This document shows positions 8,717 through 28,207 of a DNA stretch of 64,000 bases, one piece after another. Source of the stretch: Gammaproteobacteria bacterium. Lineage in GTDB: Bacteria; Pseudomonadota; Gammaproteobacteria; Steroidobacterales; Foliamicaceae. The notes beneath the pieces were generated by a model. The model saw nothing but the letters and a program-made list of their open reading frames with translations. It did no database searches and was not told where the DNA came from. The translations under genes were made by a program, and so were the position numbers. The DNA lies in contig JAPOTY010000021.1 in NCBI GenBank assembly GCA_026708965.1, forward strand, positions 80,182 to 144,181, written 5' to 3'. Position 1 is the stretch's first letter. Every line of letters begins with the position of its first letter.

Positions 8717-8719
8717 GCC

Positions 8720-10045: not shown

Positions 10046-10049
10046 CGGC

Positions 10050-10820: not shown

Positions 10821-10857
10821 GGCGCGGCGGGCCACGGCGCAGCGAGGTTGTCGCACG

Positions 10858-11451: not shown

Positions 11452-11480
11452 GCCGGGAACGGCTCGCTTCGGGCAAGCGC

Positions 11481-13073
11481 ATGCGCGTTTTTATGCGAAT
11501 TTTCGGCATCTTCCGCCTGCTGGCCCGCTATGGTTTGCTGCACGAGGCCGGACTGGCCCGGCCGCTGAGGATTCCGGCTTGGATGCTGCTGGCCGGCCGG
11601 CGGCGCAAGGGCGCTTCGCGGGGCGTTCGCCTGCGCGAGGCATTGCAGGAGCTAGGGCCGATCTTCGTGAAGTTCGGCCAGAATATCTCCACGCGGCCCG
11701 ACCTGCTTCCTGCCGATATTGCCGCCGAGCTGGCGCGGCTGCAGGACGACGTGCCGCCGTTTTCGGCGGATACGGCGCGCCGCCGCCTGAGCCGGTTTTA
11801 CGGCCGCCCGGTGGAGGAGGTGTTTGCATCATTCGAGCCCGAAGCGCTGGCGGCGGCTTCCGTCGCCCAGGTTCATGCCGCTCGCCTGCCCGGCGGCGAG
11901 GAGGTGGTGGTCAAGCTGCTGCGGCCCGGGGTGCGGGAGCGGATCGAAAAGGATGTGAAGCTGCTCTACGGATTGGCGCGGCTGGCGACCCGGCTATGGC
12001 CCGCCACCCGCCGCCTGCGCTTGGTGGAAGTGGTTAACGAGTACCGGCGAACGCTCAAATACGAAATGGATCTGATGCGCGAGGGCGCCAACGCGGCGCG
12101 CCTGAAGCGCAGTTTCGCGGATTCGGACATCATCCACGTTCCCGCCGTGCATTGGGACTACTGCCGTCCCGAAGTGCTGGTGATGGAGCGGATTCGCGGC
12201 GTGCCCATCCGCGAGGTGCAGGCGATGAAGGATGCCGGCGTGGATATTCCCGAACTGGCGGCGCGGGGCGTGAGGATTTTCTTCACCCAGGTGTTCCGCG
12301 ACAGCTTCTTTCATGCCGACATGCATCCCGGCAACGTGTTTGTGGATATTTCGGACCCGGCCAACCCGCGCTACGCGGCGGTGGATTTCGGCATCGTGGG
12401 CATTCTCGACGAGCGCGACCACCATTACCTGGGGCAAACGCTGCTGGCCTTCTTCGAGCAGGACTACGCCCGTCTAGCCCGTTTGCATCTGTACTGGGGC
12501 TGGGTGGCGCCGGATACGCGCGCGGAGGATCTTGAGGCGGCGTTCCGGGTGATCGGCGAGCCGATTTTCGCCAAGCCCTTGAGCGAGTGCAGTTTCGGCC
12601 GGGTGCTGGGCCGCATCTTCGCCACCGCCCAGGAATTCGATATGCAGTTGCAGCCGCAAATGCTGCTGCTGCACAAAACGCTGCTCAATATCGAGGGCCT
12701 GGGAAGGGAGCTATACCCTCAACTCGATCTTTGGGAAACCGGCTATCCGCTGCTCAAGCAATGGATGCGCCGCCGCGCCGCGCCTCGGCGCTTGCTCAAG
12801 GAGCTCAGGCGCGACCTGCCGGAACTGCGCTACGCCTTGCAGCGCCTGCCCCGCGTCGCCCACCGCCTGCTGGATAAAGCGGAAGGAAGGCAAGCCCGCG
12901 CCGAACACCGCGGGCTGCGAGCGCGCCGAAACCTCTGGCGCCAGCTAACCGGCGGCGCTCTGCTGATTGCCGGCGCGCTGCTGCTCGGCCTGCGCGCCGA
13001 GCCCGCTTGGCTCACTTGGCTCTCAGGCGCCGTCGGCGCTGTTCTGCTGCTCGCCTCCCGCCCCCGCCGCTAG
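11481..13073 (+). CDS. ubiB: ubiquinone biosynthesis regulatory kinase-like protein UbiB (ABC1 family)
   Basis: 530 aa. FVKFGQNISTRPDLLP, AAASVAQVHAARL.GGEEVVVKLLRPG, HADMHPGNVFV, and two C-terminal TM helices. Confidence 0.92.
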   Translation: MRVFMRIFGIFRLLARYGLLHEAGLARPLRIPAWMLLAGRRRKGASRGVRLREALQELGPIFVKFGQNISTRPDLLPADIAAELARLQDDVPPFSADTARRRLSRFYGRPVEEVFASFEPEALAAASVAQVHAARLPGGEEVVVKLLRPGVRERIEKDVKLLYGLARLATRLWPATRRLRLVEVVNEYRRTLKYEMDLMREGANAARLKRSFADSDIIHVPAVHWDYCRPEVLVMERIRGVPIREVQAMKDAGVDIPELAARGVRIFFTQVFRDSFFHADMHPGNVFVDISDPANPRYAAVDFGIVGILDERDHHYLGQTLLAFFEQDYARLARLHLYWGWVAPDTRAEDLEAAFRVIGEPIFAKPLSECSFGRVLGRIFATAQEFDMQLQPQMLLLHKTLLNIEGLGRELYPQLDLWETGYPLLKQWMRRRAAPRRLLKELRRDLPELRYALQRLPRVAHRLLDKAEGRQARAEHRGLRARRNLWRQLTGGALLIAGALLLGLRAEPAWLTWLSGAVGAVLLLASRPRR

Positions 13074-13075
13074 CG

Positions 13076-14590
13076 ATGCCCGAACCTGCTCCGCGCTGCG
13101 AACGCCGAAGTCGGCGCCTGCGGCTTGCGGTCGGACTGTTCATCAGCTTAGCCGTTTGCGGACCGCTGGGCTCCGAGGATGAGCCGGACGACGAGCCGCC
13201 GGCGATCGATATCGCGGAAACGCGGGCTGAAGGGCCGTTTGTAGGTATGGAGCTGCGGGAGACGGGGGTTCTCGCTTGGGAGGCGGAGTCGGTCGAGGTG
13301 CCCCGGTCGAAGCGATCGTCGGCTCGCTCGGAACTGACCCCGGCAGAGGTGATCGATCACCCGGATTGCGGCATGCGGATTGGCGCGGGGGCCGCCTTCG
13401 GCTTGGCGATGGTCGTTGTGCCTGATGCCATCGGCGCGCGGTTCTCGGTGCTGAACGAAGACGGCGCGGTGCAATCCGGCGATCTGCCTTTTGCGCCCTA
13501 TTGCTACATGATGGGGAAGCGGTCGGACGGCTCGATCGTGGCGGGCTTCGGTCGCTTGGCGCCCGAGCATGGCGTCAACCAAGGCCGTGAAAACCCCGGC
13601 CCGTTGCGAATCTATCTGGATGGCCAGCTGATCGACGCGCGCGAAGGCATCCGGGATTTCGGCGTGGCCAACGACGGTTCCTCGTATTGGCTGGTCGAGC
13701 CGCTGGGGGAGGGAAGCTCGCGCTTGGCAGTCCGCAATCTGGACGAGGGAACGGAAAGGCACCACGACCTAGGCGACAAGCACGAGCTGCACGGCTTCGA
13801 CATGCTCTACGGCACGTCGTACACGCCGAACGGCAACGAATTGCACGTGGCGCCAGTGAATGACAATGAGTCGGGCGAGGGTGTGCATTATTTCTTCCCT
13901 GTGAGCGGCGGCGGCCAAGCGCGGAAATTGAGGGTGGAGGGAATAGATCCTTGGGACAGAGCCTATATTGTTTCGTCCACGGAAGGGTATTTCTTCTTCA
14001 CGGGCGATGAGTCCGAACCGGGCTTCCGGGTGGAAAAACGCCGGTTCGATTGGGCCACGGGGGAAATCTCCGCGGTATGGGGGCTGGAGGGCGCCAGCGG
14101 GGTCACGCCTTCCCCGATCCAAGCCACCCCGGACGGGGCGTGGCTGTTATTTGAAACCCACCCGGCGCATTCCCGCCCAGGCGACCGTTCCTCGCCAAGA
14201 AGCGATTGGGCGCTGTATGTGCTTGATGCATCCACAGGAGAGCCGGCATTCGCGCTTCCCACAGTGGATGAGCAAGCGCAGTTGGCGCGCCTTCAAAGCG
14301 TGCTTGGGTCTGGCGCGGATATTGAAGACATGGGCTATTTCAATCGTGCGCGCATCGATAGCGGACTCAACCAGTTGATTATCGACCGCCGATTTGAAAC
14401 GGACGGGGAGCCGGATTACGACCGGCGGGCGCTCGACGTGTACGACTTGGACACGATCGCCGTCCATGCCCAGCCCGACTTTCGGTTGCCGTCCAACCGC
14501 TGGATATTGAATCCTTGCGCTTCGGCAGCCTATCCCGGCCAGCTGCTGGCGCTCGAAAACGGCAGGCTGGCCTACGCTCCTGCGCGCTAA
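13076..14590 (+). CDS. hypothetical lipoprotein (beta-rich, possibly propeller-like)
   Basis: ORF 13007..14590 trimmed to Met24. RRSRRLRLAVGLFISLAVC is an n-region plus lipobox. Repeated D-G-S/W-containing segments. No family recognised. The first roughly 16 codons are antisense to a trpA-derived repeat (see findings). Confidence 0.7.
   Translation: MPEPAPRCERRSRRLRLAVGLFISLAVCGPLGSEDEPDDEPPAIDIAETRAEGPFVGMELRETGVLAWEAESVEVPRSKRSSARSELTPAEVIDHPDCGMRIGAGAAFGLAMVVVPDAIGARFSVLNEDGAVQSGDLPFAPYCYMMGKRSDGSIVAGFGRLAPEHGVNQGRENPGPLRIYLDGQLIDAREGIRDFGVANDGSSYWLVEPLGEGSSRLAVRNLDEGTERHHDLGDKHELHGFDMLYGTSYTPNGNELHVAPVNDNESGEGVHYFFPVSGGGQARKLRVEGIDPWDRAYIVSSTEGYFFFTGDESEPGFRVEKRRFDWATGEISAVWGLEGASGVTPSPIQATPDGAWLLFETHPAHSRPGDRSSPRSDWALYVLDASTGEPAFALPTVDEQAQLARLQSVLGSGADIEDMGYFNRARIDSGLNQLIIDRRFETDGEPDYDRRALDVYDLDTIAVHAQPDFRLPSNRWILNPCASAAYPGQLLALENGRLAYAPAR
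13084..13123. repeat. direct repeat copy A (relic of trpA 3' coding sequence)
   Basis: acctgctccgcgctgcgaacgccgaagtcggcgcctgcgg matches 14723..14762 at 35 of 40 positions in the same orientation. Confidence 0.85.
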
Positions 14591-14613
14591 CGTTTGGGGA
14601 ACGTTCAGCCGGA

Positions 14614-15384
14614 TCAGTCGCGCAATTGGCGGAGGAAAGCGCCTGCGTCTTCGCCGCGCTCTAGGCAGTCCACGACCGCCGAGCCGACTATCACGCCGTC
14701 GGCCACGCCGCTTAAGGCGCGCACTTGCTGCGCGCTGCGAACGCCGAAGCCGGCGCATACGGGCAGGCCGGAATACTCGCTGACCTTTTGCATGTAGCCG
14801 GTCATTTCCGCCGACACCTCGCGTTCTCCGCCGGTCACGCCGGTGGCGGTGACGGCGTACACGAATCCGCCGCTGGCTTGGCACAGCGCGCGCAAACGGT
14901 CGTCGGGCGTGGCCGGCGTCACCATTTGCACCAGCGCCGCGCCGTGCTTCTGCAAAGGGGCGCGCGCCGCCGCGCATTCCTCCCAAGGCAGATCCGGCAC
15001 GATCAGGCCCGCCACGCCGCATTCGCCGCAGCGCGTCGCCAGCGATTCGAGCCCGTAGGCCAGCAGCGGGTTGTAGTAGCTCATCAGCACCAGCGGCACG
15101 CCCGGATCGCCATGCGCCTGAAGCTCGTCGAGTATCCAGTTCAACGAAACCCTGTTCGCCAGCGCCGTTTCGCTGGCCCGCTGTATCGTCACGCCGTCGG
15201 CCATCGGATCGGAGAACGGCACGCCGATCTCCACCGCGTCGCCCGCCGCCGCCAGCATGTCCAGAATCGCGTGGAAGTCCTCCCGCCTCGGGTGCCCGGC
15301 CGTGAAGAACGGCAACAGCGCCGGCTGCCGCGCGTTCAGGATGGCGCTGCGAAGCCGCTCCGCGCCGGTGCTCGATTTGCTCAC
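14614..15384 (-). CDS. trpA: tryptophan synthase alpha chain
   Basis: ORF 14614..15489. FFTAGHP, EIGVPFSDPMADGVTIQ, LMSYYNP, GFVY.V...GVTG, CAGFGV. Start placed at GTG 15384 (VSKSSTGAERLRSAI...), giving a typical 256 aa. The upstream 35 codons look like a relic rather than TrpA. Confidence 0.88.
   Translation of the reverse strand: MSKSSTGAERLRSAILNARQPALLPFFTAGHPRREDFHAILDMLAAAGDAVEIGVPFSDPMADGVTIQRASETALANRVSLNWILDELQAHGDPGVPLVLMSYYNPLLAYGLESLATRCGECGVAGLIVPDLPWEECAAARAPLQKHGAALVQMVTPATPDDRLRALCQASGGFVYAVTATGVTGGEREVSAEMTGYMQKVSEYSGLPVCAGFGVRSAQQVRALSGVADGVIVGSAVVDCLERGEDAGAFLRQLRD
14723..14762. repeat. direct repeat copy B (inside intact trpA, codons for CAGFGVRSAQQV)
   Basis: acttgctgcgcgctgcgaacgccgaagccggcgcatacgg. 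This is the partner of 13084..13123. Confidence 0.85.
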
Positions 15385-15688
15385 AAGCGTACATTGTGGA
15401 GCAGCACCGCCGCATCTGGCAATGCCAAGGATACGCCCCAAGGCATCGGCGCGCCTCTGGCCCGCGCCTGCAAGCGGCGTTTCGCCCACCTCCGGCGCCC
15501 GCTGGTTCTTATCTCCCGCTATCTCTAATCCTTGATAGTAGGATTTCCTTCATATGGGTGAAAAGTTGATCAAAGGCGTTATCAGGGCCGCTTTTTGACC
15601 TCGGCCTACGATTGGCCCGACCGAGTTAGTTGCTATTTATTTCTATATTAGCTAAATTGTCAACTGATGGAGAAGGGAGAATAAAATA

Positions 15689-16768
15689 ATGATAGGACAG
15701 AGGCTTAGGATATCAAGGCTGGCTTCCGGGCTTTCTCTTCGTGGTTTGGAAGCCAAGATTGACAACCGTGTTACGGCTCAGGCGATCAGCAAGTACGAGC
15801 GCAACGAGTCAATGCCGAGTTCGGGTGTGCTCATTGCGCTCGCCGATGCGCTGGATGTGGCCGTGGATTATCTGGCTGGCGATGCGAGCATGGTTCTGGA
15901 AGCCGTGGATTTCCGCAAGAAAAGGTTTACGGGTAGGCGTGAACAAGCGCGCATCGAAGCCAGTGTGCTGCATCTGCTTGAGCGCTACCTCACGGTCGAG
16001 GAGATTCTGGGCCTGCCAAGCGTTGCCTGGGACAAGCCGAGGGAGGCGCCCTGGCCCGTGGTGCGCGATTTGTCTGAGGCGGAGCAAGGCGCGCTTGGAC
16101 TTCGCATTCACTGGGGGCTTGGCCTCGATCCTATTCCAAACTTGGTCGAACCTCTGGAAGAAAGGGGGATCAAGGTATTGGCAATGGACCTTCCCGCTAT
16201 CGACGGCCTGACCGCGCGCGTACGCCGGGACAAGGGGAAGCCCGCCTCTGTAATTGTCGTAAACCAAGGAGATTGGGGCGAGCGCCAGAGATTTACGGCG
16301 GCGCACGAGCTAGGCCACATGGTTCTGGATGTTGCTCCCAAGCTGAACAATGAAAAGGCCGCGCACCGCTTTGCCGGCGCCTTCCTCATGTCGGCGGAAA
16401 CGCTGCGCGCCGCAATCGGCAAGCACCGCAAGTCCATGGGCTGGGGCGAGCTGTTCGAGTTGAAACGGGTGTTCGGCGTTAGCGTGCAGGCGCTCACGTA
16501 TCGCTGCAAGGACCTCGGCATTTTCAGCAACCGCTTGTTCCGGTCGCTGTTCGACGAGTTTGCCCGCCGCGGCTGGCGCCGCCCGCCGTACGAGGAGCCT
16601 TATGCAATGCAAGGCGAAAAGCCCGGACGGTTCGAGCGGCTGTGCTACCGCGCCTTGGTGGAGGGGGCGGTGTCCGATGCCAAAGCCGCCGAGCTGCTCG
16701 GCATTTCGGTTCGCGAGTTGAACCAGCGCGTGGAGGAGCCCCCTCGTTTCGAGCCGCTAGCCGCCTGA
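15689..16768 (+). CDS. XRE-family HTH fused to ImmA/IrrE (M78) zinc metallopeptidase domain
   Basis: 359 aa. N-terminal HTH (LSLRGLEAKI..RVTAQAISKYERNESMPS), HEXXH site AAHELGHMV. AT-rich upstream region with agggaga SD. Confidence 0.85.
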   Translation: MIGQRLRISRLASGLSLRGLEAKIDNRVTAQAISKYERNESMPSSGVLIALADALDVAVDYLAGDASMVLEAVDFRKKRFTGRREQARIEASVLHLLERYLTVEEILGLPSVAWDKPREAPWPVVRDLSEAEQGALGLRIHWGLGLDPIPNLVEPLEERGIKVLAMDLPAIDGLTARVRRDKGKPASVIVVNQGDWGERQRFTAAHELGHMVLDVAPKLNNEKAAHRFAGAFLMSAETLRAAIGKHRKSMGWGELFELKRVFGVSVQALTYRCKDLGIFSNRLFRSLFDEFARRGWRRPPYEEPYAMQGEKPGRFERLCYRALVEGAVSDAKAAELLGISVRELNQRVEEPPRFEPLAA

Positions 16769-16774
16769 CCACGG

Positions 16775-16984
16775 ATGCCGGGCGACGGAGAAATGCGTGA
16801 GCTGGCCCGATCAGAAGCAGTTGCCTGCCATGGCGTTCTATGGCTGATTGACAAAATGTTCGAGCATGGCCTCGTATCTGCCGCCCAGCTCTGTTTCTCC
16901 ATCCAAGCAATTGCGTCACATCCCCGCTGCCGGTTGCCGAAGAATGAAGTCAGAAAAAGGATTCGGCTCTACTGTGGCGGCTGA
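16775..16984 (+). CDS. 69-aa ORF, possibly the C-terminal remnant of a PIN-like (DUF3368-type) protein
   Basis: Lies in the same reading frame as the upstream gene, 2 codons after its TGA. The segment ACHGVLWLIDKMFEHGLVSAAQL...RLPKNEV resembles the C-terminal helix pattern of DUF3368/PIN proteins. The N-terminal catalytic half is absent. Confidence 0.35.
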   Translation: MPGDGEMRELARSEAVACHGVLWLIDKMFEHGLVSAAQLCFSIQAIASHPRCRLPKNEVRKRIRLYCGG

Positions 16985-17069
16985 AAGAACCCGTGCATGA
17001 ATTTGAACAATTGCGATAGGCAAGCTAGAGCTGCACTTGAGGCGCTGGAGTATTCCTGCCCTCTTTCCG

Positions 17070-17103
17070 AGGCCCGTGCGCGAGCACGGGCCTTCGTGTA
17101 TTT
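17070..17103 (+). terminator. Rho-independent terminator-like hairpin
   Basis: aggcccgtgc-GCGA-gcacgggcct is a 10-bp stem with a tetraloop, followed by tcgtgtattt. Confidence 0.5.
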
Positions 17104-17263
17104 AGGAACTTGGTGGTGAGATTGCTTACCTTGACGAGTTCGGACATGTTGGCCCGTATGCTTCCCGAAACGACCCGAGGCATAACGCCAGTCCGGTATA
17201 TTGCTTACCGGGTCGCCCGCGCCGTCGTTTGAGTAAAATCGCGCAAGGACTCGGCGCACGACC

Positions 17264-17488
17264 ATGAGCAACGCTCACCACCTTGGCCTATCGATCCCGT
17301 CGGCGGCTTGGCTGCGCCCTCCGCCCAAGGCGGATGATGCCGCCTTGCATGAAATTCTGGTCGCATTCAATCCAATGATCCTGTGGGAAAGCGAACCAAG
17401 CGCGGCCCTCTTTCTACAAGAACATCCCCAAAAACGACATCGAAATCGAGAAATAGCCACCGAGCATTGCATAATTGACGGACTATGA
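17264..17488 (+). CDS. 74-aa hypothetical ORF, possibly a frameshifted piece of a decayed DUF3800-like gene
   Basis: ATG with no convincing SD. Its stop overlaps the next start (ATGA). See the finding on 17106..17488. Confidence 0.3.
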   Translation: MSNAHHLGLSIPSAAWLRPPPKADDAALHEILVAFNPMILWESEPSAALFLQEHPQKRHRNREIATEHCIIDGL

Positions 17489-17862
17489 AATTCCGCGAGC
17501 AATTGCCGGAAAATTGTCCGCCAGATTCGGCAGTGGAAATTCGAGAGACAATATACGTGTTCCGACTCGTCAGATCGCTGCCGCCTACTGAGTCGGATTT
17601 TCAGTCTCAACGGGCCGAAAATCTGGACCGCTCATTTTCAGGAGTAAGTGAATGCCAAGCCTTCGGCCTATCCGTTTTTCTGCTGCGCAGCGATGCAGAG
17701 AAGAAGCTAAAGTTGCCCAAAATGCGCGGGCGGAAGGTCTGTCGAGTGATGTTGGTTGCCGGAGCAGGCTATATCGATAAGACTGGTCGAGCATCGCATC
17801 ACACATGGTGGCCGCTCGCGAAATACGACATATTGGCCCAATGCAATTGGGAAGCGATATGA
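17485..17862 (+). CDS. hypothetical protein (125 aa), family unknown
   Basis: MKFREQLPENCPPDSAVE...DFQSQRAE...SECQAFGLSVF...GRASHHTWWPLAKYDIL. Overlaps both neighbours by ATGA. No catalytic motif recognised. Confidence 0.65.
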   Translation: MKFREQLPENCPPDSAVEIRETIYVFRLVRSLPPTESDFQSQRAENLDRSFSGVSECQAFGLSVFLLRSDAEKKLKLPKMRGRKVCRVMLVAGAGYIDKTGRASHHTWWPLAKYDILAQCNWEAI

Positions 17863-19001
17863 AGCCCATTCGCTGCACAACCATGCTGGATTACTGCGAC
17901 GGCCCGCTGCTTTTCGAGGCGCGGGATCGCATCGGCGGGCACTATCTGGCAATGACCGTGGAGACAAGCGGAGGAGAGGACGAGTATGCGGTCGTGGGCG
18001 TGGAGCCGGAGCGGCTGCGCCAATTTCGCACGGGGTTGGTGGATTTGAGGCTTCTGTTTGAAGAAGCTGGGGAGCATGAGTGGTTCTTGGCCAAAGCGAC
18101 GGCTTTAGATGAGCCGCTGAATTTGCGCCCGCAGACAAGTGCTTTGTCGCGTAGCGGGCTTTTGCCTGAAGAGGGGTTTGTTCTCCCGTATATGCCGACC
18201 GGCGCATTTGTGCTCAAGGAAGCGAAGGCGCGCAATAATCTCATGCTTGAACTGGTAGTGGAGCCGCCGGAGTCAGCGACTGGCCACCGTGTTCGTGTGG
18301 ACACTTATGCGGGTTTGCTCAATCAAGTGCAAACAATGATGAAGCATGCCTATAGATCGGTGCTAAAAGAGCTTCCCTCTAGCTACCAGCCATCGATCCG
18401 ACCATCGGAAGCGGTGCTGATGGATGTAGTTGTGCCTGCCGCCGCCGGTTCCATGCGTGTGGTTCTCGAAGCCGCTCATCCGCCTGACCTTCTGGGCGGG
18501 AGCGAGGTTGCACTGGCACTGCACCGAGTGGACACGTTTTTTGAGAATGCTGCCAACCCCGACTTAGCGCTCGAGACGGCGAAGCATCATCGGGGGCATC
18601 TCGCCGGAGCTTACTTGCGGCTTCTGAGGTTCTTGGAACATCGGGAGACAGGTCTCAGCTATTCTTGGGCCGAGCCCGCTTCCGAGCAGGCGAATAGCAG
18701 AGCGGTATCGGCATCGGAAGCTGTGGCGCTTGCGCAGGCGCTTGCTAAGGTTACAAGCCTAGGAACCGAGGAGGTTGCATTCGCGGGGGAATTCATGAAA
18801 GTCAACCGTGACACCAGAGCATGGGGATTGGATACAGGGACACGTATCGAGACAGGCAAAGTCATTGACGATGGCCCGAGCCTCAATGGGCTTACGGTAG
18901 GCAGCCGGTACAAGTTCTTCTGCGTGGAAAAAATCGAAGCTGTCGAAGGCACGGGAAGGGAAACTCGGTGCCTTTATTTGCAAAAGTTTGAACGCGAATA
19001 G
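17859..19001 (+). CDS. hypothetical protein (380 aa), family unknown
   Basis: ORF 17805..19001 trimmed to Met19 (ATG 17859, gggaag SD, ATGA overlap with the upstream stop). No Walker, nuclease, HEPN, PIN, TIR or SIR2 motif seen. Confidence 0.7.
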   Translation: MKPIRCTTMLDYCDGPLLFEARDRIGGHYLAMTVETSGGEDEYAVVGVEPERLRQFRTGLVDLRLLFEEAGEHEWFLAKATALDEPLNLRPQTSALSRSGLLPEEGFVLPYMPTGAFVLKEAKARNNLMLELVVEPPESATGHRVRVDTYAGLLNQVQTMMKHAYRSVLKELPSSYQPSIRPSEAVLMDVVVPAAAGSMRVVLEAAHPPDLLGGSEVALALHRVDTFFENAANPDLALETAKHHRGHLAGAYLRLLRFLEHRETGLSYSWAEPASEQANSRAVSASEAVALAQALAKVTSLGTEEVAFAGEFMKVNRDTRAWGLDTGTRIETGKVIDDGPSLNGLTVGSRYKFFCVEKIEAVEGTGRETRCLYLQKFERE

Positions 19002-19173
19002 ATTGTCCGGCCTTTCATAATGGACGGATGATGGCGGTACAAGGGAATCCCGCATAAAACGGCTCGGATCGCAAGGGAACGGCTAGTGTCTATGCTGGCT
19101 GTGCGAGATAGCAAGATATCATTGTGTCTTACCCGGGCCGTCTCCGATCACAGCACCAATACGGACCGGTAGT

Positions 19174-20266
19174 GTCAATAATCTTTCGCACTTTCGCTTT
19201 AGCGGTGGTCCCGGTCCCTCCTTCAGGCTGCTGCGCAGGCGGCTTCCTTGTCCATCTCCGCGAGCAACCCGACATTCATGTATTTCCGCAATCCCCACTG
19301 GGTGGCCGACACGTGCCTTAGCCTTGCGGCGACGAGCATCAGCGCCGATTGGCCGTCCGGGAAGGCGCCGACCACTTTGGTTCGCCGGCGCGCCTCGCGC
19401 AGCAAGCGTTCCATCGGATTATTGGTCTTCAGCTTGATCCAGTGCTGCGAGGGGAACGAGCAGTAGGCCAGCGTCTCCTCGATCGCGTTTTCCACGAGCT
19501 CCGCCGCCGCGGCCAGCTTCATCGCCTTAAGCTTCCCGATCACGTCCCGGGCTTTGACCAGCGCGGCCGAACGGCTCTCCCGGGCGTGGATCGCCTTGGG
19601 CATGGCGGCCGCCTGGCGCACTTTCCTGCGCGGCACATGAGAGAACACGTTGCGGTGGAAATGCGCCACGCAGCGCTGCCAGCCGGCCTTGTCCTCCTTG
19701 CAGCCTTCGGCAACGCCCAGGACACGGCGGTGGCCCTGCGCGTCAACCCCGATCGCCGCCAGGACCGGGACGTTCTTGATCTCCCCGCCCCAGCTGCGCT
19801 TGAGCGCCAACCCGTCCAGATAAACATACGCGCACTCGCCTGGTTGCGCCAGCGCTCGATGTGCCCGTACATCTTGCGGTTGAGGTTGGACGCCGTGCCG
19901 GAAGACACCCGTGTGCCCCATGGGGCTTCGGCGGCGTCCTCCACCCGACGAACCGACACGCCCGCCAAGTACATCTGAACGATCGCCTCCTCGACCGGGA
20001 TGTCCCGGCGCCGATAGCGCTCGATGACCGCCGTCTCGAACGTCCGGCTACGCAGCTTCGGCACCTTCAACTCGTACTTCCCCGGCCTGCGTACGCAGCT
20101 TGCGCGAGCAGTGCCCCGCACGCGTGTCGATCCGAATCACCTTGCCCAATGCCTTCGTGCTATCTTGCTCCATGGTGGTCTCCTCATGGTCCGGTGGTTG
20201 TCGTCAAACAACCTTTCTGCCAGACCGAGACCACCGCCTCTGAAAAATGTGCGAAAAATAATTTAC
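19174..20266 (-). mobile_element. IS256-family insertion sequence remnant (about 1.09 kb) with recognisable terminal inverted repeats
   Basis: Ends gtcaataatctttcgcac...gcggtggtcccggtc (19174 onward) and the reverse complement of 20266 backward, gtaaattatttttcgcac...gcggtggtctcggtc, align as imperfect TIRs. No target-site duplication seen. Confidence 0.6.
19223..20173 (-). pseudogene. IS256-family (mutator-type) transposase, disrupted
   Basis: Two overlapping frames. 19540..20121 reads ELKVPKLR...MYLAGVSVRRVED. 19223..19921 reads YVYLDGLALK...LAAIGVDAQGHRRVLG...WQRCVAHFHRN...NNPMERLLREARRRTKVVGAFP. There is at least one frameshift near 19860-19920. The roughly 40 aa normally between KAGW and QRC are missing, and the N-terminus is shortened. 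Confidence 0.8.
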
Positions 20267-20631
20267 GTTATCCATGTTTCGGTGGGCATAGGTGGCCCTG
20301 GCGCTTTATGCGTTTCCTCTTTTACGCTGAAAGCTTCCCACTCGCCGTTACTCTCTCGCCTATAGATAGTGTCCCAAAACCAAGGGCCAGAATGATGCTT
20401 CGTGGGGTCATGTTGGAACGGGGGCACGATGGTTTGTATTGATTGGACTTCCGGGGCGATCCGCTCGAAGAGTTTGGTGCATCCTGTCATGTCGCAATAG
20501 CCCCTATTCCAGATCAGACCGGTTTGGTGCTCGAATGAGTAGCACAGTGCGGAGACAAAGCAATGAAGGTCGGGGTGTGGTTTTTTGTTTATCACGGTCT
20601 CTCGCCAAGTCTTATGAGCAGGCCCAAACAA
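20263..20631 (-). CDS. hypothetical 122-aa ORF (doubtful)
   Basis: TTG start only, with the first ATG at codon 48. Low GC. Lies between the hsdS stop and the IS remnant. No family recognised. Confidence 0.3.
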   Translation of the reverse strand: MFGPAHKTWRETVINKKPHPDLHCFVSALCYSFEHQTGLIWNRGYCDMTGCTKLFERIAPEVQSIQTIVPPFQHDPTKHHSGPWFWDTIYRRESNGEWEAFSVKEETHKAPGPPMPTETWIT

Positions 20632-20679
20632 CAGTATAAGCCTAGAGAAATTGTTCTGGGTACTGCTTAAGTTCTTGCT

Positions 20680-22257
20680 CTATAGGGCTGTAAGTAACGC
20701 TGACGCAAGAAAGCTAGCACGGCTGGAATTGATGGTTATGAGGCCAGATTCGATTTCGTCGCACAACGCCATCAATCCATCAACTTTGGTGACAATGCGG
20801 TGTTGCTCGGTGAGCGGTGGTATGGATATGCGTTCATTGTAGACATCCGATCGGCTAAGCCCAGGTTTCACGCCCTTGGCCAAGTAGTCCAAATTGAGCG
20901 CAGACAGAGATATATAGAGAAAACGAAGGCTCAAAAAATCTGGTACTTCTATGTAGTACGCGACATCAGTAGTCCATGACGGGCCGTTGCATATGTTGAG
21001 CGCCCCGGCTGATCCCTTGCGGCCCACAATAACGCATGACTGCTTTGTCAGTGGTTCGGTGGTATAGCCGACAATTCCATTGGAGCCGTAAACAGGTACC
21101 GGGCCGTCTCGTTTGCGTTGATTTGCTGTCAGTCCCTTGCCGTACCGGAAGTCAAGAATCTCGCCCAAGTTGCGGCTGCACCAGTTGACTGGGCGACTAA
21201 AGTCGCCGCCTTCGCCCTGCAAATTTGATCTGGGAAGACTTGCTGGCTTTTCACGATCCGGTCTCTGCGCCACAAGCTTGCCGCGGACGGCTAGGTTGAG
21301 GATGGTTTGGCGGAGATTTTTGATCTGGTCGGCGCGAGTTGTTAGGGCGGGCAGGGATTCGATGGCGAAGCGGGCGTGGGAGCGGAAAGTTGCTATGTTC
21401 GCGTTGGGTTCGCTCAGGCGGGCGAGGGTGGTTTTGGTCAGTTGGGCACGGGCTTCTTTGCGCTCCATGCGACCTTCTTCCAATCGGTCGCAGAGCGCCA
21501 TCAGTTCATCAACTTTGGCGGCGATTCGCTGCTGTTCGGCTAGCGGAGGCAAGGCAACTGGGATTTGGTCCATCCTGTATTTTGGCAAACCACCACGACC
21601 GGCACCGGTTTGCTCGTCAAGGATGAATGCTTGGAAGTACGGGGACAGGATCACATAGTGCAGGAACTTGCACAGTCCATTGATAGCAATACGGATTATC
21701 GAGACATGCTGGCTAATGTTTGCTTGGCCCAAGCTGTCTGGAACCAAACAGCAGCGGCCAATAGACCCGCCCGTGATATTCAGTAGGAGGTCTGATGATC
21801 TAACGGCTGTTCCAGACATCCGTTTGTGAGTTGCTGGATCAATATAAGCAACGTCGGTCAACCGTAATCCATCGTTGTGAATATTCTGGGAGCGCAGGAA
21901 CACTATTCCGTTGTCCGTGTACGCTTTCTTGCCGCCCCTCGGTGTGCTTCCCGAGCCTGTCTTGGAACAAATTTCACCTATCGTCGTTTTTGCCCAGCTC
22001 GCAGGGAGTTTGAACGGAAGTTGGTGCGCCGAATCAGAGTGTGTGCTGGAAGCTCTCGATACTCTTCCTTTGCCCTTCAGCCCAGCCCTCTTCGTGGCAA
22101 TCCGCTCAAGCAGTGTCCATCCTGGTTCGTCGTTTGGGTCCTGCTTCACCAGTCGTCCCCTGATAGCGAGATCAAGCATGAGACGGCGCAGGCGGTGAAC
22201 GCCATCAGGCGAGTCGGATAGATGGTCAAAATGAGCGAGCAGACGTTCCGCGTTCAT
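20680..22257 (-). CDS. hsdS: Type I restriction-modification specificity subunit HsdS
   Basis: 525 aa. Two variable target-recognition regions are separated and followed by conserved helices LPPLAEQQRIAAKVDELMALCDRLE and IPPLTEQHRIVTKVDGLMALCDEIE. Confidence 0.92.
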   Translation of the reverse strand: MNAERLLAHFDHLSDSPDGVHRLRRLMLDLAIRGRLVKQDPNDEPGWTLLERIATKRAGLKGKGRVSRASSTHSDSAHQLPFKLPASWAKTTIGEICSKTGSGSTPRGGKKAYTDNGIVFLRSQNIHNDGLRLTDVAYIDPATHKRMSGTAVRSSDLLLNITGGSIGRCCLVPDSLGQANISQHVSIIRIAINGLCKFLHYVILSPYFQAFILDEQTGAGRGGLPKYRMDQIPVALPPLAEQQRIAAKVDELMALCDRLEEGRMERKEARAQLTKTTLARLSEPNANIATFRSHARFAIESLPALTTRADQIKNLRQTILNLAVRGKLVAQRPDREKPASLPRSNLQGEGGDFSRPVNWCSRNLGEILDFRYGKGLTANQRKRDGPVPVYGSNGIVGYTTEPLTKQSCVIVGRKGSAGALNICNGPSWTTDVAYYIEVPDFLSLRFLYISLSALNLDYLAKGVKPGLSRSDVYNERISIPPLTEQHRIVTKVDGLMALCDEIESGLITINSSRASFLASALLTAL

Positions 22258-22610
22258 TCCTCCGGCGGTCCCAACTCCGAAAGTAGCATACGCACGATTG
22301 AGCCCAGTTCCGGAAGCTTATTCTGGGCGAAAAGCCAAACACGTTCAGATTCGACTACAGCGTAGCCATGGATGAGTAGGTTGCGGAAATCGACAGCCTT
22401 GCGCCACCGCGGTATCCGTTCGGCGATTTCGGGGCTGATTTGATGCAGGCGGTTCAGAGCCTCGCCAATGATTTCGAATTTGCGCTCGACGGCCGCTTGT
22501 GTTTGATCATCGCGGCTGTAGGCATGGCTGTTCATGCCCGCAATGTAGCGGCTGATGTCAGCCGCCGCCGATTCGATATCCGATAGTAGGGCGCGGGGGT
22601 CAGGCCGCAT
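22254..22610 (-). CDS. hepT: HEPN-domain (DUF86) toxin HepT
   Basis: 118 aa. RX4HXY motif RNLLIHGY. Overlaps the hsdS start by 4 nt and the mntA stop by 11 nt. Confidence 0.85.
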   Translation of the reverse strand: MRPDPRALLSDIESAAADISRYIAGMNSHAYSRDDQTQAAVERKFEIIGEALNRLHQISPEIAERIPRWRKAVDFRNLLIHGYAVVESERVWLFAQNKLPELGSIVRMLLSELGPPEE

Positions 22611-22911
22611 AGATGAGCTGGCGCGACTTGTTTATAGCCGCTTGCAAGTACGGATTTCTTACCGCACCCGATTCGACCAGATCGACCGGGCGACCCAATG
22701 TCTGGCGCAATGCTTCGGCGAAGTCGAAGTATTGTTCGAGCGGGGCTTGTCCATTGATGCGCCTGAACTTCACTAGGAAATCAGCATCGCTGTTTTCCGG
22801 GTCGAAATCTGCGGCACGCGCTGCCGAGCCGAAAATCTCGAGCCGCGCCACATCGTGGCTCCGGCACAGTTCAGCCAGTTTTTCGCGCTTTTCAGCGATT
22901 TCAGGATGCAT
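22600..22911 (-). CDS. mntA: minimal nucleotidyltransferase antitoxin MntA
   Basis: ORF 22600..22944 trimmed to Met12. Motifs RLEIFGSAAR and SDADFLV (GS...DxD). Confidence 0.85.
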   Translation of the reverse strand: MHPEIAEKREKLAELCRSHDVARLEIFGSAARAADFDPENSDADFLVKFRRINGQAPLEQYFDFAEALRQTLGRPVDLVESGAVRNPYLQAAINKSRQLIYAA

Positions 22912-22953
22912 CACTGATCCTCCTGCTACGGACGAAACGACCAATCCCGGCTA

Positions 22954-24405
22954 TTATCGTAGCAGCGCCTCCGCTAGGGCGTTCTTCAGCTGGTCGCGCA
23001 CGGCGCGCACTTCGGACTCGGCGCGGTTCAGTTCCGCCAGCAGTTTTTCGGGGTTGCCGACGTACTCCGCCTCCGTGTGCGGATTCTTGATGTCGAGGTT
23101 GTAGCCGCGTTTCCGCACGGCCTCGGCGCTCACCTTCCAGGCGCGCTCGCCTTCCTCGCGGCTTGCGCGCTCCGCGCCGCCCCACCAAGCCGCGCAATCC
23201 GCCAAGTGCTCCAAGCGGATGGGGCGGGTTTTCGAGTAGTGCTTCTGCCCCTCGGGCACCCGGTGCTCCCAGAACCACACTTCCCTGGTCGGCTCGCCTT
23301 TCTCGAAGAACAGCAGGTTGGTGCCGATGGAGGCGTAGGGCTTGAAGACGGAATTGGGCAGGCGCACGATGGTGTGCAGGTTGCATTCCTGCATCAGGCT
23401 TTCCTTCAGCCGCGCCTTCACGTCTTCGCCGAACAGCGAGCCGTCCGGCAGCACCACGGCGGCGCGCCCGCCGGCTTTAAGCAGCCGGATAATCAGGGCG
23501 AGGAACAGGTCCGCTGTTTCGCGGGTGCGGAAACGCTGCGGGAAGTTGGATTCGATGCCGTCCTCCTCCTTGCCGCCGAAAGGCGGATTGGTGAGCACGA
23601 TATCGACCCGCTCGCTCCTGCCCCAGGAGGTGTAGGGGCGCGCCAGCGTGTTGTCGTGGCGCAGGAACGACGGAGCCTCCACGTTGTGCAGCAGCATGTT
23701 GGTAACGGCCAGCATGTGCGGAAGCGGCTTCTTCTCCACCGCCCGCAGCGATGCCTGCATGGCGGCCTCGTCCTCGGGGCGCTTCACGTAGCGCTCGCGC
23801 ATGTGGCGCATGGCGCAGGTGAGGAAGCCGCCGGTGCCGCAGGCCGGGTCGAGCAGGGTTTCGCCGGGCTTGGGATCGATCATTTGCGTCATAAACGAGG
23901 TGACGGCGCGCGGCGTGTAGTACTCGCCGGCGTTGCCGGCCGATTGCAGGTCGTTCAAGACTTGCTCGTAGATATCGCCGAAGTGCTGGCGCTCGGCCAG
24001 GTTGTTGAAGTCGATGCCGTTGATCTTGTTGACCACCTGCCGCATCAGCTGGCCGGACTTCATGTAGTTGTAGGCATCCTCGAACACGTCACGCACCACG
24101 TTGGCGCGCGCGCCGGCGGCGGGCGGGAGCTTCTTGAGCGCCGGGAAGAGGTCGCCGTTGACGAAGCTCAGCAATGCCTCGCCGGTCATGCCTTCCGGGT
24201 TGGCGGCCCAATGGCGCCATTGCAGGCGCGCCGGGACGGGCGAGCGGTAGCCGTCCTTGAGCAGCTCGAGCTCCTGATCCTGGTCGTCGATGATCTTGAG
24301 GAAGAACATCCAGCACAACTGGCTGATGCGCTGCGCGTCGCCATCCACGCCCACATCCTTGCGCATGATGTCCTGAATGGACTTGACCAGCGCGCTAACG
24401 GCCAT
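22954..24405 (-). CDS. hsdM: Type I restriction-modification methyltransferase HsdM (N6-adenine)
   Basis: 483 aa. GEYYTPR, motif I DPACGTGGFL, motif IV NPPFG. Confidence 0.95.
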   Translation of the reverse strand: MAVSALVKSIQDIMRKDVGVDGDAQRISQLCWMFFLKIIDDQDQELELLKDGYRSPVPARLQWRHWAANPEGMTGEALLSFVNGDLFPALKKLPPAAGARANVVRDVFEDAYNYMKSGQLMRQVVNKINGIDFNNLAERQHFGDIYEQVLNDLQSAGNAGEYYTPRAVTSFMTQMIDPKPGETLLDPACGTGGFLTCAMRHMRERYVKRPEDEAAMQASLRAVEKKPLPHMLAVTNMLLHNVEAPSFLRHDNTLARPYTSWGRSERVDIVLTNPPFGGKEEDGIESNFPQRFRTRETADLFLALIIRLLKAGGRAAVVLPDGSLFGEDVKARLKESLMQECNLHTIVRLPNSVFKPYASIGTNLLFFEKGEPTREVWFWEHRVPEGQKHYSKTRPIRLEHLADCAAWWGGAERASREEGERAWKVSAEAVRKRGYNLDIKNPHTEAEYVGNPEKLLAELNRAESEVRAVRDQLKNALAEALLR

Positions 24406-24408
24406 TGG

Positions 24409-26874
24409 CTAGGCGGATTCCCGGTAGAGCGCGGACTGAAGGTCGTGGACGGCGCGCTCGAAGCCGCTCCTGCCGCCGAAGGCGCGCACCAGCTCCACCG
24501 GCGTGCCCAGCCGGTCGATGGGCGGGATTCTGAGCACGTTGGCATCGTCGAGATTGAACACGCCCTCGTCGGCGTACTTGTCGAGCAGCGCGGCGAGCAC
24601 GGCGCGGGCTTTCTCCCCGTGCTTTGCGAAAACGTTGCGCTTTTTCACGTTCTCGGCCCGCTCGCGGCGGGTGAGCGGCTTGGCGTCGAAGGCCACATGG
24701 CAAATAAGATCGAAGGGATCGAGTTTTCGGCCCAGTTCCTCCACCAGCACGTTCAGTTGCAGCCCTTCGGTCTCCATCTCGTCGATGATCGCCTGCTTGC
24801 GCTCGGCCGCGTTCCAGCGCCTCAGGAAATCGTCGAGGCTGGCGAAGCGGCGGCGCAGCGCCTTGCGGGTGAAGTCGCGCAGCGATTCGGTGACGAGCTT
24901 GCCATGCTCGTCGAGATATTCCACCCGCTCGGCGACGATCCTGGCGCTAATGCCATCCACGTAGATCTTTTTGATCGCCCCGCCGCCGCCGGGCTGCTCC
25001 GTGAGGAGGCCGGCCGCCGTCTCGTCGCCGCTGTCGATGCCGCCCCGCGAATCATCCCCGCTGGCCGCCGGCTCCTCGGTGTCGGGCGGATCCATGGGGT
25101 CGCCTTCCTTCGGCTCGTAGATCTGCGCCGGCTCGCCGTCGAACTCGGGATCGGCGAAATGGCTGGTTGCGCCGCGAAAGTCGATGAGCGTGAAATAGAG
25201 CTTGCCGGTATCCTCATGCACCCGGCTGCCGCGGCCCACGATTTGCTTGAATTCGGTCATCGAGCCGACATTGCGGTCCAGCACGATCAGCCGGCAGGTT
25301 TGCACGTCCACGCCGGTGGAAAGCAGGCGCGAAGTGGTGACCAGCACGGGGTATTTCGACTCCGGGTCGATAAAGCTGTCGAGCTGGGCCTGCCCCTCGG
25401 CGTCGCCGCCGGTAATTCGCATCACGTAGCGCGGGTTCCGGCCAACGAGGTCGGCGTTCTCGTTGATCAAAGCCTGTCGCATCCGCGCGGCATGCTCTTG
25501 ATCGACGCAGAAGACGATGGCCTTCTGGAACCGGTCGCCGCTTTCCTTGAGGAAGGCGGTGATTTTCTCCGCAACGATTTTGGTGCGCCCGTCGATCACC
25601 AGCGCCCGGTCGAAATCCTTAAAGTTGTAGATGCGGTCCTCCACCTCCTCGCCCTCGCGGTCCAGCTGGCCGCGCTCCGGTCGGTAGCCCTCCACGTCGC
25701 GGTCGATATGCGCCTTGATGACCTTGTAGGGCGCGAGGAAGCCGTCGCTAATGCCTTGCTTGAGCGAATAGGAGAAGACCGGCTCGCCGAAATAGGCGAT
25801 ATTGGACACGTATTGCGTTTCCTTCGGCGTGGCGGTGAGGCCGATTTGGGTGGCGGCGGAGAAGTATTCGAGAATTTCGCGCCAAGCGGAATCGTCCGCC
25901 GCGCTGCCCCGGTGGCACTCGTCGATCACGATCAGGTCGAAGAAGCCCGGCGAGAGCTCGCGGTAGATTTTCTGGGATTCCTCCGGCCCGGTAATGGCTT
26001 GGTAGAGGCCGAGATAGATTTCGTAGGCGGTATCGATGCGGCGGGCGCCGCTGCCGCGCCGCATGGCGTGGGGCATGTCGATCAAACGGGCGCCGCCGTC
26101 GCGCCGGATGGTATTGGAGCGCGTGGACAGCTTGGCCATCGCGCCGCCGAACGGGCGAAAATCGTTCACGATCGTTTGGTCCACCAGCACGTTGCGGTCG
26201 GCGAGGAACAGGATGCGCTTCTTGCGGCCCGCCTTCCAAAGCCGCCAGATAATCTGGAAGGCGGTGTAGGTTTTGCCCGTTCCGGTGGCCATCACCAGCA
26301 GGATGCGGCTCCGGCCCTTGGCGATGGCTTCGACGGCGGCGTTGATCGCGCTGGCTTGGTAATAGCGCGGCGTTTTGCCGCCGCTGTCGGCGTGGTAGTC
26401 CTGAAGAAAAACGCTCTCGGCCTCCGGCTCCAAGCCTTTCCATTGCCGGTAGCGCGCCCAAAGCGCTGCGGGAGAGGGAAACGCGTCAAGCGGCAGATCG
26501 GCCTCGCGCGGCGCGCTGGCGCCGGTGCGGTCGTGCAACACGAAAGCGTCTCCGTTGGAGGAGAATGCGAACGGGACGCCCAGCGCCTCGGCGTAGTCCA
26601 GCGCCTGCTGCATGCCGTCGCCAACCCCGTGCGAGTTGTCCTTCGCCTCGATCACCGTGATGGGAATATTCGGCTTGCAGTAGAGGATGTAGTCGGCGCG
26701 CTTCGCCTTGCCGCGAGCCACCAGCTTGCCCCGCACGATGACGCGGCCCTTGGTGAACGTCACCTCTTCGCGAATCTGCGCCATTTCGTCCCACCCGGCT
26801 TGGCGCAGGGCGGGCGTGATGAACTTGGTGCAAATATCGCGTTCGGAAAGGCCGCGCTTGTCGATCACGGCCAA
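24409..26874 (-). CDS. hsdR: Type I restriction enzyme endonuclease/translocase subunit HsdR
   Basis: 821 aa, TTG start. N-terminus ...ERDICTKFITPAL..AGW, helicase motifs MATGTGKT and VIDECHRGS. Confidence 0.93.
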   Translation of the reverse strand: MAVIDKRGLSERDICTKFITPALRQAGWDEMAQIREEVTFTKGRVIVRGKLVARGKAKRADYILYCKPNIPITVIEAKDNSHGVGDGMQQALDYAEALGVPFAFSSNGDAFVLHDRTGASAPREADLPLDAFPSPAALWARYRQWKGLEPEAESVFLQDYHADSGGKTPRYYQASAINAAVEAIAKGRSRILLVMATGTGKTYTAFQIIWRLWKAGRKKRILFLADRNVLVDQTIVNDFRPFGGAMAKLSTRSNTIRRDGGARLIDMPHAMRRGSGARRIDTAYEIYLGLYQAITGPEESQKIYRELSPGFFDLIVIDECHRGSAADDSAWREILEYFSAATQIGLTATPKETQYVSNIAYFGEPVFSYSLKQGISDGFLAPYKVIKAHIDRDVEGYRPERGQLDREGEEVEDRIYNFKDFDRALVIDGRTKIVAEKITAFLKESGDRFQKAIVFCVDQEHAARMRQALINENADLVGRNPRYVMRITGGDAEGQAQLDSFIDPESKYPVLVTTSRLLSTGVDVQTCRLIVLDRNVGSMTEFKQIVGRGSRVHEDTGKLYFTLIDFRGATSHFADPEFDGEPAQIYEPKEGDPMDPPDTEEPAASGDDSRGGIDSGDETAAGLLTEQPGGGGAIKKIYVDGISARIVAERVEYLDEHGKLVTESLRDFTRKALRRRFASLDDFLRRWNAAERKQAIIDEMETEGLQLNVLVEELGRKLDPFDLICHVAFDAKPLTRRERAENVKKRNVFAKHGEKARAVLAALLDKYADEGVFNLDDANVLRIPPIDRLGTPVELVRAFGGRSGFERAVHDLQSALYRESA

Positions 26875-26980
26875 TTCCCCGGTCTCGCGCTCAGGGCCAT
26901 AAGGTGTTGCGTATTCTTGTTGTCCCCCGGCAGGCAGCTTACCAGAGCTATTTTGCGGCGGCGGCAGGCTAGAGCGGCGC

Positions 26981-28207
26981 TTAGGTGAGGTGGCGGGTGA
27001 GGGTGGGCATGTCCTTGTCGCCGCGGCCGGATAGGCCGATAAGGATGCGTTTGCCGGGGTTTTGGCGCGCCCATTGGCGGGCGGCGAATAGGGCGTGGGC
27101 GGGCTCCAGCGCCGGCAGGATGCCTTCTAAGCGGCAGCATTCCGCCAGCGCTTCGAGGGCCTGATCGTCGCTGGCTGAGAGGTATTCGACCCGGCCTATC
27201 GCCTGCAATAGCGCGTGCTCCGGCCCCACGCCCGGATAATCGAGGCCGGCGGAAATCGAGGCGGTCTCCACGATTTGGCCGTCGTCGTCGTAGAGCAGCA
27301 TCGAGTAGCTGCCGTGCAGCACCCCCGGCTTGCCGGCGCCCAGCGATGCCGCGTTCTGGCCCTCGCCCGGTCCCGTGCCGCCGGCCTCCACGCCGAAAAT
27401 AGCCACCGCTTCGTCGCCTAAAAAGGCGTGGAACAGGCCGATGGCGTTCGACCCGCCGCCCACGCAGGCGAAAACGGCATCCGGCAGCCCGCCGGCGGCC
27501 TCGGCGAACTGTTCGCGCGCCTCTTCGCCGATCACCTTCTGCAACTCCCGGACCAGCCAGGGATAGGGATGCGGGCCCACCGCCGACCCCAGCAGGTAGT
27601 AAACGCCTTCCGGATCCGAAACCCAGGCGCGGAAGGCTTCGTCGGTGGCCGCGCGGAGGGTGCGGTCGCCCTTATCGACAGCCACGACCTCGGCCCCGAG
27701 CTGGCGCATGCGCTGCACGTTCGGCGCCTGCCGCTCCATATCCAGCGCGCCCATGTACACCGTGCAGGGCAAGCCTGCGCGGGCGCAGGCCGCCGCCGAG
27801 GCCACCCCGTGCTGTCCGGCGCCGGTTTCCGCCACCACGCGGCTCGCGCCCAAGCGCAGCGCCAAGTGCGCCTGGCCCAGCGCGTTATTGATCTTGTGGG
27901 CGCCGGTATGGGCCAGATCCTCGCGCTTGATCCATACCTCGGCGCCCCAGGCCCGCTCCAGGCCGAGCGCGCTGGTGAGCGGCGTGGGGCGTCCGATCCA
28001 TGCCCGCCGTTCCTCGTTCAGCGCGCGGCAAGCATCGTTGTTGGCAAAGAATTCCCGCGCCTTGCGTTCCAGCCGCGACAGCGCCGGCATCAGCGTTTCG
28101 GGGGCGAAGCGGCCGCCGAAGGGGCCGAAGCGGCCATCGCCGTCCGGCAAATCGCCGTTCAGCAGCGCGGCCAGCAGCGCGCGGGCTTCGGATTCGGGCA
28201 TGTTCAT
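26981..28207 (-). CDS. trpB: tryptophan synthase beta chain
   Basis: 408 aa. DLAHTGAHKINN (PLP lysine), GGGSNAIG, GLDYPGVGPEH. Confidence 0.95.
   Translation of the reverse strand: MNMPESEARALLAALLNGDLPDGDGRFGPFGGRFAPETLMPALSRLERKAREFFANNDACRALNEERRAWIGRPTPLTSALGLERAWGAEVWIKREDLAHTGAHKINNALGQAHLALRLGASRVVAETGAGQHGVASAAACARAGLPCTVYMGALDMERQAPNVQRMRQLGAEVVAVDKGDRTLRAATDEAFRAWVSDPEGVYYLLGSAVGPHPYPWLVRELQKVIGEEAREQFAEAAGGLPDAVFACVGGGSNAIGLFHAFLGDEAVAIFGVEAGGTGPGEGQNAASLGAGKPGVLHGSYSMLLYDDDGQIVETASISAGLDYPGVGPEHALLQAIGRVEYLSASDDQALEALAECCRLEGILPALEPAHALFAARQWARQNPGKRILIGLSGRGDKDMPTLTRHLT

Follow-up and report, generated by a model that had tools for sequence, protein, structure and literature searches.

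Within a 64,000-nucleotide stretch of a gammaproteobacterial genome (hereinafter, the window: positions 80,182 to 144,181 of the forward strand of contig JAPOTY010000021.1, assembly GCA_026708965.1), we analyzed two overlapping genes on the plus strand. Gene A (17485..17862) encodes a small PD-T4-10A-like protein of 125 amino acids (aa), and gene B (17859..19001) encodes a 380-aa protein with a DUF6575 domain, so that the entire system is 1517 bp long. A preliminary description of the sequence had proposed that such a small plus large overlapping pair inside a defense island is a toxin-antitoxin (TA), abortive infection (Abi) or new defense module, and the best candidate for an undescribed system. 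The first part of this proposal holds, given that A matches the PD-T4-10_A model and the B family matches both PD-T4-10_B and DUF6575. The claim of novelty, however, proved wrong: the pair is a divergent member of the described, experimentally validated PD-T4-10 family.

Both A and B are real, intact genes. The stop codon of A and the start codon of B overlap in the tetranucleotide ATGA at 17859-17862, and a GGGAAG Shine-Dalgarno (SD) sequence at 17849-17854, 4 nt 5' of the B ATG, completes a signal that can be read directly from the sequence (17849..17862, plus strand); both elements had been noted in the preliminary description. The SD and the overlap together suggest that A and B are produced by translational coupling. 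In the list of open reading frames (ORFs), B is also given with an earlier in-frame start, at 17805; because all B homologues begin at the residue equivalent to 17859 (MK.I....L.Y.DGP), this upstream start is not the real one. The G+C content across the pair is 0.55-0.57 compared to 0.65-0.70 in the flanking backbone, in agreement with the low value perceived initially.

The family assignment is based on profile comparisons. Nearly the entire length of protein A aligns with the PADLOC model PD-T4-10_A (E = 3.6e-6, 24.7 bits; residues 9-119 on positions 23-140 of the 148-position profile), and all 54 tested A homologues match this model as well, the best of them at 2e-9. Nothing was found for A in NCBIfam or PHROGs, and none of the 54 homologues has a Pfam match. 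For B, NCBIfam and PHROGs were equally silent, and Pfam identified DUF6575 (PF20215) in residues 10-109, encoded by 17886..18185 on the plus strand (E = 2.4e-6; 27.6 bits, just over the gathering cut-off of 26.6). All 60 tested B homologues contain this domain (best E = 2.5e-9), 33 of them weakly match PD-T4-10_B (best E = 6.9e-5), and the partner of a remote A homologue in Rhodococcus matches PD-T4-10_B at 6.6e-6 through the DUF6575 region. The nearly full-length match of A, the DUF6575 and PD-T4-10_B matches in the B family, and the gene layout jointly identify the pair as a divergent member of the family.

PD-T4-10 consists of two overlapping ORFs without predicted function that were recovered by functional selection from Escherichia coli ECOR65, where the system spans 1604 bp (Vassallo et al. 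2022; PMC9519451). The B protein of E. coli is toxic and is neutralized by A; A could not be deleted, and deletion of B abolished defense against phage T4. The E. coli system is a TA pair that confers Abi defense against T-even phages, and it was effective when cloned alone (PMC9519451). A 2024 survey still lists PD-T4-10 as a system of unknown function. The pair in the window shares with PD-T4-10 the overlapping ORFs, a small one followed by one of about 350-380 aa, the similar total length, the match of A along nearly the entire PD-T4-10_A model, the relationship of the B family to PD-T4-10_B via the DUF6575 region, and the lack of a recognizable catalytic domain in either protein. It differs in its host, a high-GC gammaproteobacterial metagenome-assembled genome (MAG), and in its strong divergence, with the two systems compared through profiles only. 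A blastn comparison of a remote A-B locus with the E. coli collection gave no match.

Both proteins have hundreds of full-length homologues. After clustering at 90% identity, the collections included at least 427 A sequences of constant length and at least 292 B sequences, and a profile search with A over 1.8 billion representatives yielded 1948 clusters (50% identity) at E <= 1e-3. We analyzed 80 genome loci seeded on B and a separate sample of 80 metagenome loci seeded on A (loci are denoted by L numbers below). In about 74 of the 80 B-seeded loci, from at least 8 phyla, A immediately precedes B (Verrucomicrobiota, Spirochaetia, Acidobacteriota, Nitrospirales, Latescibacterota, Binatia, Gammaproteobacteria, Planctomycetota and other groups are represented among the loci), and the 4-nt overlap is retained in 70 of 73. 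Conversely, among the A-seeded metagenome loci with enough downstream sequence, a gene with DUF6575 follows A in 51 of 51, and a full-length B in 42. Even remote pairs, in which A is about 34% identical, keep this layout; they were found on three plasmids only, from Oscillatoria, Bacillus mycoides and Rhodococcus. No members of the B family were found in IMG/VR, and A had no match in phage genomes. Thus, the homologues are strictly syntenic and, as detailed below, enriched beside type I restriction-modification (R-M) and other defense genes, which is the pattern that the preliminary description had put forward as a check on its proposal.

The predicted structure of B (mean pLDDT, the model confidence score, 82) has three parts: a beta-rich N-terminal DUF6575 domain, an alpha/beta middle, and a C-terminal oligonucleotide/oligosaccharide-binding (OB) fold (residues ~304-380; 18768..18998, plus strand). 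In a Foldseek search of the PDB, the OB fold matched RPA14, Ten1, RMI2, SSB, the anticodon-binding domain of LysRS, and CspA, with probabilities of ~1.0, E values from 2.3e-3 to 0.1, and 75-100 aligned columns. The preliminary description had divided B into an N-terminal module of roughly 100 aa, a helical middle and a C-terminal beta-like module, but saw no motif that could be placed in either protein. The two terminal modules are now accounted for by DUF6575 and the OB fold, and the statement on motifs no longer holds for B. PDB sequence searches returned only artefactual matches to designed repeat proteins, and no solved relative was found. The middle and C-terminal part of B also aligns to PDC-M63B, a component of the PADLOC candidate system PDC-M63AB: 42 of the 60 B homologues match this model (best E = 3.3e-6), and the window B does so weakly (E = 0.0052; residues 196-317 on positions 128-247 of 309). 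The alignments to the 309-position PDC-M63B profile never cover the DUF6575 region, and A matches no PDC-M63A model.

In our assessment, the balance tips moderately toward the pair being an intact, divergent TA-like Abi module of the PD-T4-10 type, in which A neutralizes B via DUF6575 and the C-terminal alpha/beta plus OB-fold part of B is toxic or acts as a sensor. The roles of A as putative antitoxin and B as putative toxin are carried over from the E. coli homologue. Under this model, both proteins would be made from a single transcript, and A, bound to the N-terminal DUF6575 domain of B, would keep B harmless. Phage infection would upset this balance, either because A is lost, inhibited or titrated, or because a ligand binds the C-terminal alpha/beta and OB-fold part of B; the released B would then arrest the growth of the infected cell, most likely by binding nucleic acids through the OB-fold region.

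Several observations weigh against this model. The B protein of the window does not match PD-T4-10_B even at E <= 1, and because of this miss, PADLOC would not call a system in the window; a PADLOC search, which the preliminary description had recommended, thus recovers A but not B. No catalytic domain was recognized in B by Pfam or by a full-length fold search, the latter being dominated by the OB fold. Furthermore, A is the more conserved partner (mean identity 58.9% compared to 51.6% for B, with A higher in 66 of 70 pairs), and, judging from the alignment, its invariant polar residues form an enzyme-like set, which is unusual for an antitoxin that simply binds its target. Full-length-looking B genes also occur beside an internally deleted A (L007, ~9900-11134, where only MNYREPLPEDCPPD... 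is left) or with no A at all (L042 and L073), and A is frameshifted in L026, L029, L065 and L081, possibly due to errors in long-read assemblies; seemingly intact B next to a lost or frameshifted A would not be expected if B always killed the cell in the absence of A. Finally, the gene order of a three-gene variant of the family, described below, would make A the toxin. Orphan statistics turned out to be uninformative as a test of which partner is the toxin, given that loss or truncation affects both sides: in several metagenome loci, B is truncated beside an intact A, and in L166, B is cut by an IS605 insertion.

These observations bring to the fore a different assignment of roles, which we consider possible, if rather doubtful: A would be a minimal enzyme related to ADP-ribosyltransferases (ARTs), either an effector that the DUF6575 domain of B restrains or an antitoxin that, similarly to those of type VII systems, covalently modifies B, whereas the variable C-terminal part of B would sense the phage. 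The AlphaFold model of A is of high confidence (pLDDT 93), and proteins with the ART fold recur among its named top Foldseek matches in two independent structure libraries, PDB and BFVD; these include cholera toxin A1, LT-IIb, IcmQ, C2-I, PARP14, ParT, DarT, and viral PARP/WWE proteins. However, no structural neighbor is significant: E values for the ART matches range from 0.1 to 8, with template modeling (TM) scores of 0.3-0.46, and all neighbors have E > 0.1. The landmarks pointed out in the preliminary description (LPENCPP, DFQSQRAE, SECQAFGLSVF and SHHTWWP) contain many of the residues that are invariant or nearly so in the family; the invariant set consists of C11, P12, P13, R27, D38, F39, S41, E56, C57, G61, S63, H105, T107, W108 and W109, and its motifs (CPP, [FY]R, DFxS, EC, GxS and HxWW) persist in the remote members. 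According to the model and the alignment, R27 on the first strand, within a conserved [FY]-R, and S63 on the second strand, within G-x-S, occupy positions of the R-S-E signature of ARTs. Against this, no conserved glutamate was found on the strand that bears the catalytic glutamate in ARTs; instead, this strand of A carries SHHTWW (H105-H106-T107). The absence of a Pfam match for A also counts against this assignment, and the phenotype of the E. coli system, with B toxic and A neutralizing, runs counter to reversed roles. The fold of A may be weakly ART-like, a lead rather than a demonstrated membership. Fusions of A were not informative: the longer proteins that contain A appear to result from mis-called starts or A-B frameshifts.

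The reversal of roles is also favored by the three-gene variant, which was found on prophage-like IMG/VR contigs (L094, 3199-4663; L095, L096, L098 and L101). The first gene of this variant encodes a clear A homologue (131-144 aa; hhalign probability 99.2%), the second a short DUF6575-like protein of 179-187 aa, and the third, which overlaps the end of the DUF6575 gene, a 170-aa SecB-like chaperone (8e-8 against Pfam SecB and 5e-4 against PD-T4-9_C, that is, CmdC). Judging by its gene order, this variant resembles toxin-antitoxin-chaperone systems, and we found no description of such a version of the family in the literature searched. The match of the third gene in this remote branch is reminiscent of CmdTAC (PD-T4-9), as is the small, possibly ART-like first gene, CmdT being of that kind as well. 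The window differs in that it has no chaperone gene, B being followed by the remnant of an insertion sequence, and in that A does not match PD-T4-9_A; moreover, the roles in PD-T4-10 are opposite to those in CmdTAC, with the antitoxin encoded by the first gene. The order of the SecB variant, the conservation of A and its enzyme-like motifs fit A being an enzyme or effector.

Several other loci are pertinent to the relationship between A and DUF6575. In L138, the gene directly downstream of A encodes a 1260-aa helicase fused to DUF6575, and in L171, the same position is taken by a combination of DUF6575 and an ORF6N domain, which is likely a chimera. DUF6575 thus behaves as a portable module that is invariably accompanied by A, which is explained most simply if A binds DUF6575. 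The fusions fit the possibility that A controls a DUF6575-tagged effector, in agreement with the E. coli result. A broader scheme can be envisaged in which A and DUF6575 form a portable two-part switch, with an ART-like A controlling, and possibly modifying, any effector or sensor that is tagged with DUF6575 at its N-terminus, and with the switch typically wired into type I R-M systems as a second line when restriction is bypassed. We consider this scheme, taken as a whole, speculative and somewhat improbable.

The connection with type I R-M suggests yet another possibility, namely, that A-B is a guard, a back-up that stays silent as long as the R-M system is intact and is fired when a phage anti-restriction function disables the enzyme. 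The anticodon nuclease PrrC, encoded between hsdS and hsdR of the EcoprrI type I R-M system in the E. coli prr locus, is the precedent for such an arrangement. PrrC is the subject of a review (PMC3874165). Type I R-M genes are located within 10 kb of the pair in 42 of the 80 genome loci (25 of the 51 with full flanks). Among the loci that are informative in this respect, 24 of 71 have an hsdR on the same strand whose start is at most 700 bp past B, and 17 of 65 have an hsdS that ends within 600 bp of A on its upstream side. The recurrent order, on one strand, is hsdM-hsdS-(cargo)-A-B-hsdR, so that in many relatives the A-B cassette occupies the same slot as PrrC; in four loci (L089, L022, L055 and L068), hsdR starts 1-25 bp past B. 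L089 has the order hsdM-PDDEXK-hsdS-TIR-A-B-hsdR, with hsdR starting 1 bp past B. In L088, from Candidatus Foliamicus (6843-21143), the pair is sandwiched between a Bub-type ubiquitin-like system (Multi_ubiq, ThiF/E1 and BubE) and a type I R-M operon in which GmrSD, FRG, and M78 plus DUF4411 genes are also present.

Nevertheless, we regard the guard function as unlikely, while noting that it overlaps the PD-T4-10-type Abi model rather than excluding it. A and B show neither sequence nor fold similarity to PrrC. In the window, the pair adjoins a type I R-M operon (hsdR-hsdM-mntA-hepT-hsdS, 20680..26874, minus strand) but is convergent with it and not embedded in it, with an IS256-type transposase remnant (19223..20121, minus strand) located between A-B and hsdS. 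In approximately half of the loci, R-M genes are lacking in the vicinity; in L090 and L091, for example, A-B is surrounded by housekeeping genes, and only small TA genes are found close to it. Furthermore, the E. coli system was active when cloned by itself. Co-location does not necessarily imply functional coupling, given that many unrelated defense genes are also housed in type I R-M operons. Other defense neighbors of A-B include a Druantia-like helicase with DruA in one locus and AbiEii/AbiE in another. It is very unlikely that the pair is an ordinary addiction module stabilizing the island, or has some other non-defense role, with no anti-phage function in this organism: the housekeeping surroundings in L090 and L091, with only other TA pairs close by, and the lack of a defense phenotype of the related PDC-M63AB in its native E. 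coli host NILS69 (10.1101/2024.12.20.629700) would be compatible with such a role, but the strong association with R-M and other defense genes and the activity of the characterized homologue against T-even phages speak against it.

The remaining features of the region agree with the preliminary description in that the pair lies between a gene for an XRE plus Peptidase_M78 protein on the left and the IS256 remnant followed by type I R-M with MntA/HepT on the right. Two ORFs, of 232 and 193 aa, make up the transposase of this remnant, which is therefore frameshifted; the sister contig L002 contains a Transposase_mut call. Between hsdM and hsdS, the R-M operon includes a HepT/MntA pair (22254-22944, minus strand), a HEPN toxin with its nucleotidyltransferase antitoxin, which is a further case of cargo within an R-M operon. 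The window sequence matches the gammaproteobacterial MAG GCA_026709685.1.

The XRE-M78 gene (15689..16768, identified by profile search) encodes a product that matches RmrA, the antitoxin model of RosmerTA, at 3.4e-49. As an RmrA-like gene is found beside the A-B pair in only 2 of the 80 loci, we reject XRE-M78 as a regulator of A-B, and the pair is not a part of RosmerTA. The only ORF downstream of XRE-M78, of 69 aa (16775..16984), has no family match in Pfam or PADLOC and does not resemble DUF4411, so that its interpretation as a DUF4411 remnant is not supported. XRE-M78 is either an orphan antitoxin or regulator, or its toxin partner has decayed. Further downstream, a terminator scan detected a terminator-like, GC-rich hairpin with an 11-bp stem (17069..17094, plus strand), which we infer to be the probable left limit of the A-B transcription unit, although terminator-like sites are no more numerous in the region than expected from shuffled sequence. 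A 74-aa ORF (17264..17488, plus strand) overlaps the start of A by ATGA, as originally noted. It was considered as a third component and rejected because it is not conserved: tblastn against 80 genome loci of other organisms detected no equivalent ahead of A, and the ORF is confined to near-identical contigs (L001-L004) from the same organism. Profile searches of Pfam, PADLOC, NCBIfam and PHROGs gave no family match above threshold for this ORF, which probably does not belong to the system. Scans for Rfam families, tRNAs and repeats revealed nothing relevant close to the A-B pair.

The genes trpA and trpB are normally adjacent and translationally coupled. Here, at window positions 14614-28207, trpA (14614..15489, minus strand) is separated from trpB (26981..28207, minus strand; TrpB match at E = 1e-139) by a low-GC defense island of about 11.5 kb, which contains XRE-M78, the A-B pair, the IS256 remnant, and the type I R-M system with MntA/HepT. 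Immediately to the left of trpA is a plus-strand ORF of 527 aa (13007-14590); no Pfam family is recorded for its counterpart in L001 (5592..7106, 504 aa). The A-B pair adds a likely fourth defense-related module to the island that splits trpB from trpA.

Taken together, these results extend PD-T4-10, a validated defense system that has so far been discussed only for E. coli, to a very large family that spans many phyla and that current detection models mostly miss. The comparative data yield testable ideas, which concern the putative docking of A on DUF6575, the possible ART-like fold of A, the OB fold of B, and the embedding of relatives between hsdS and hsdR.

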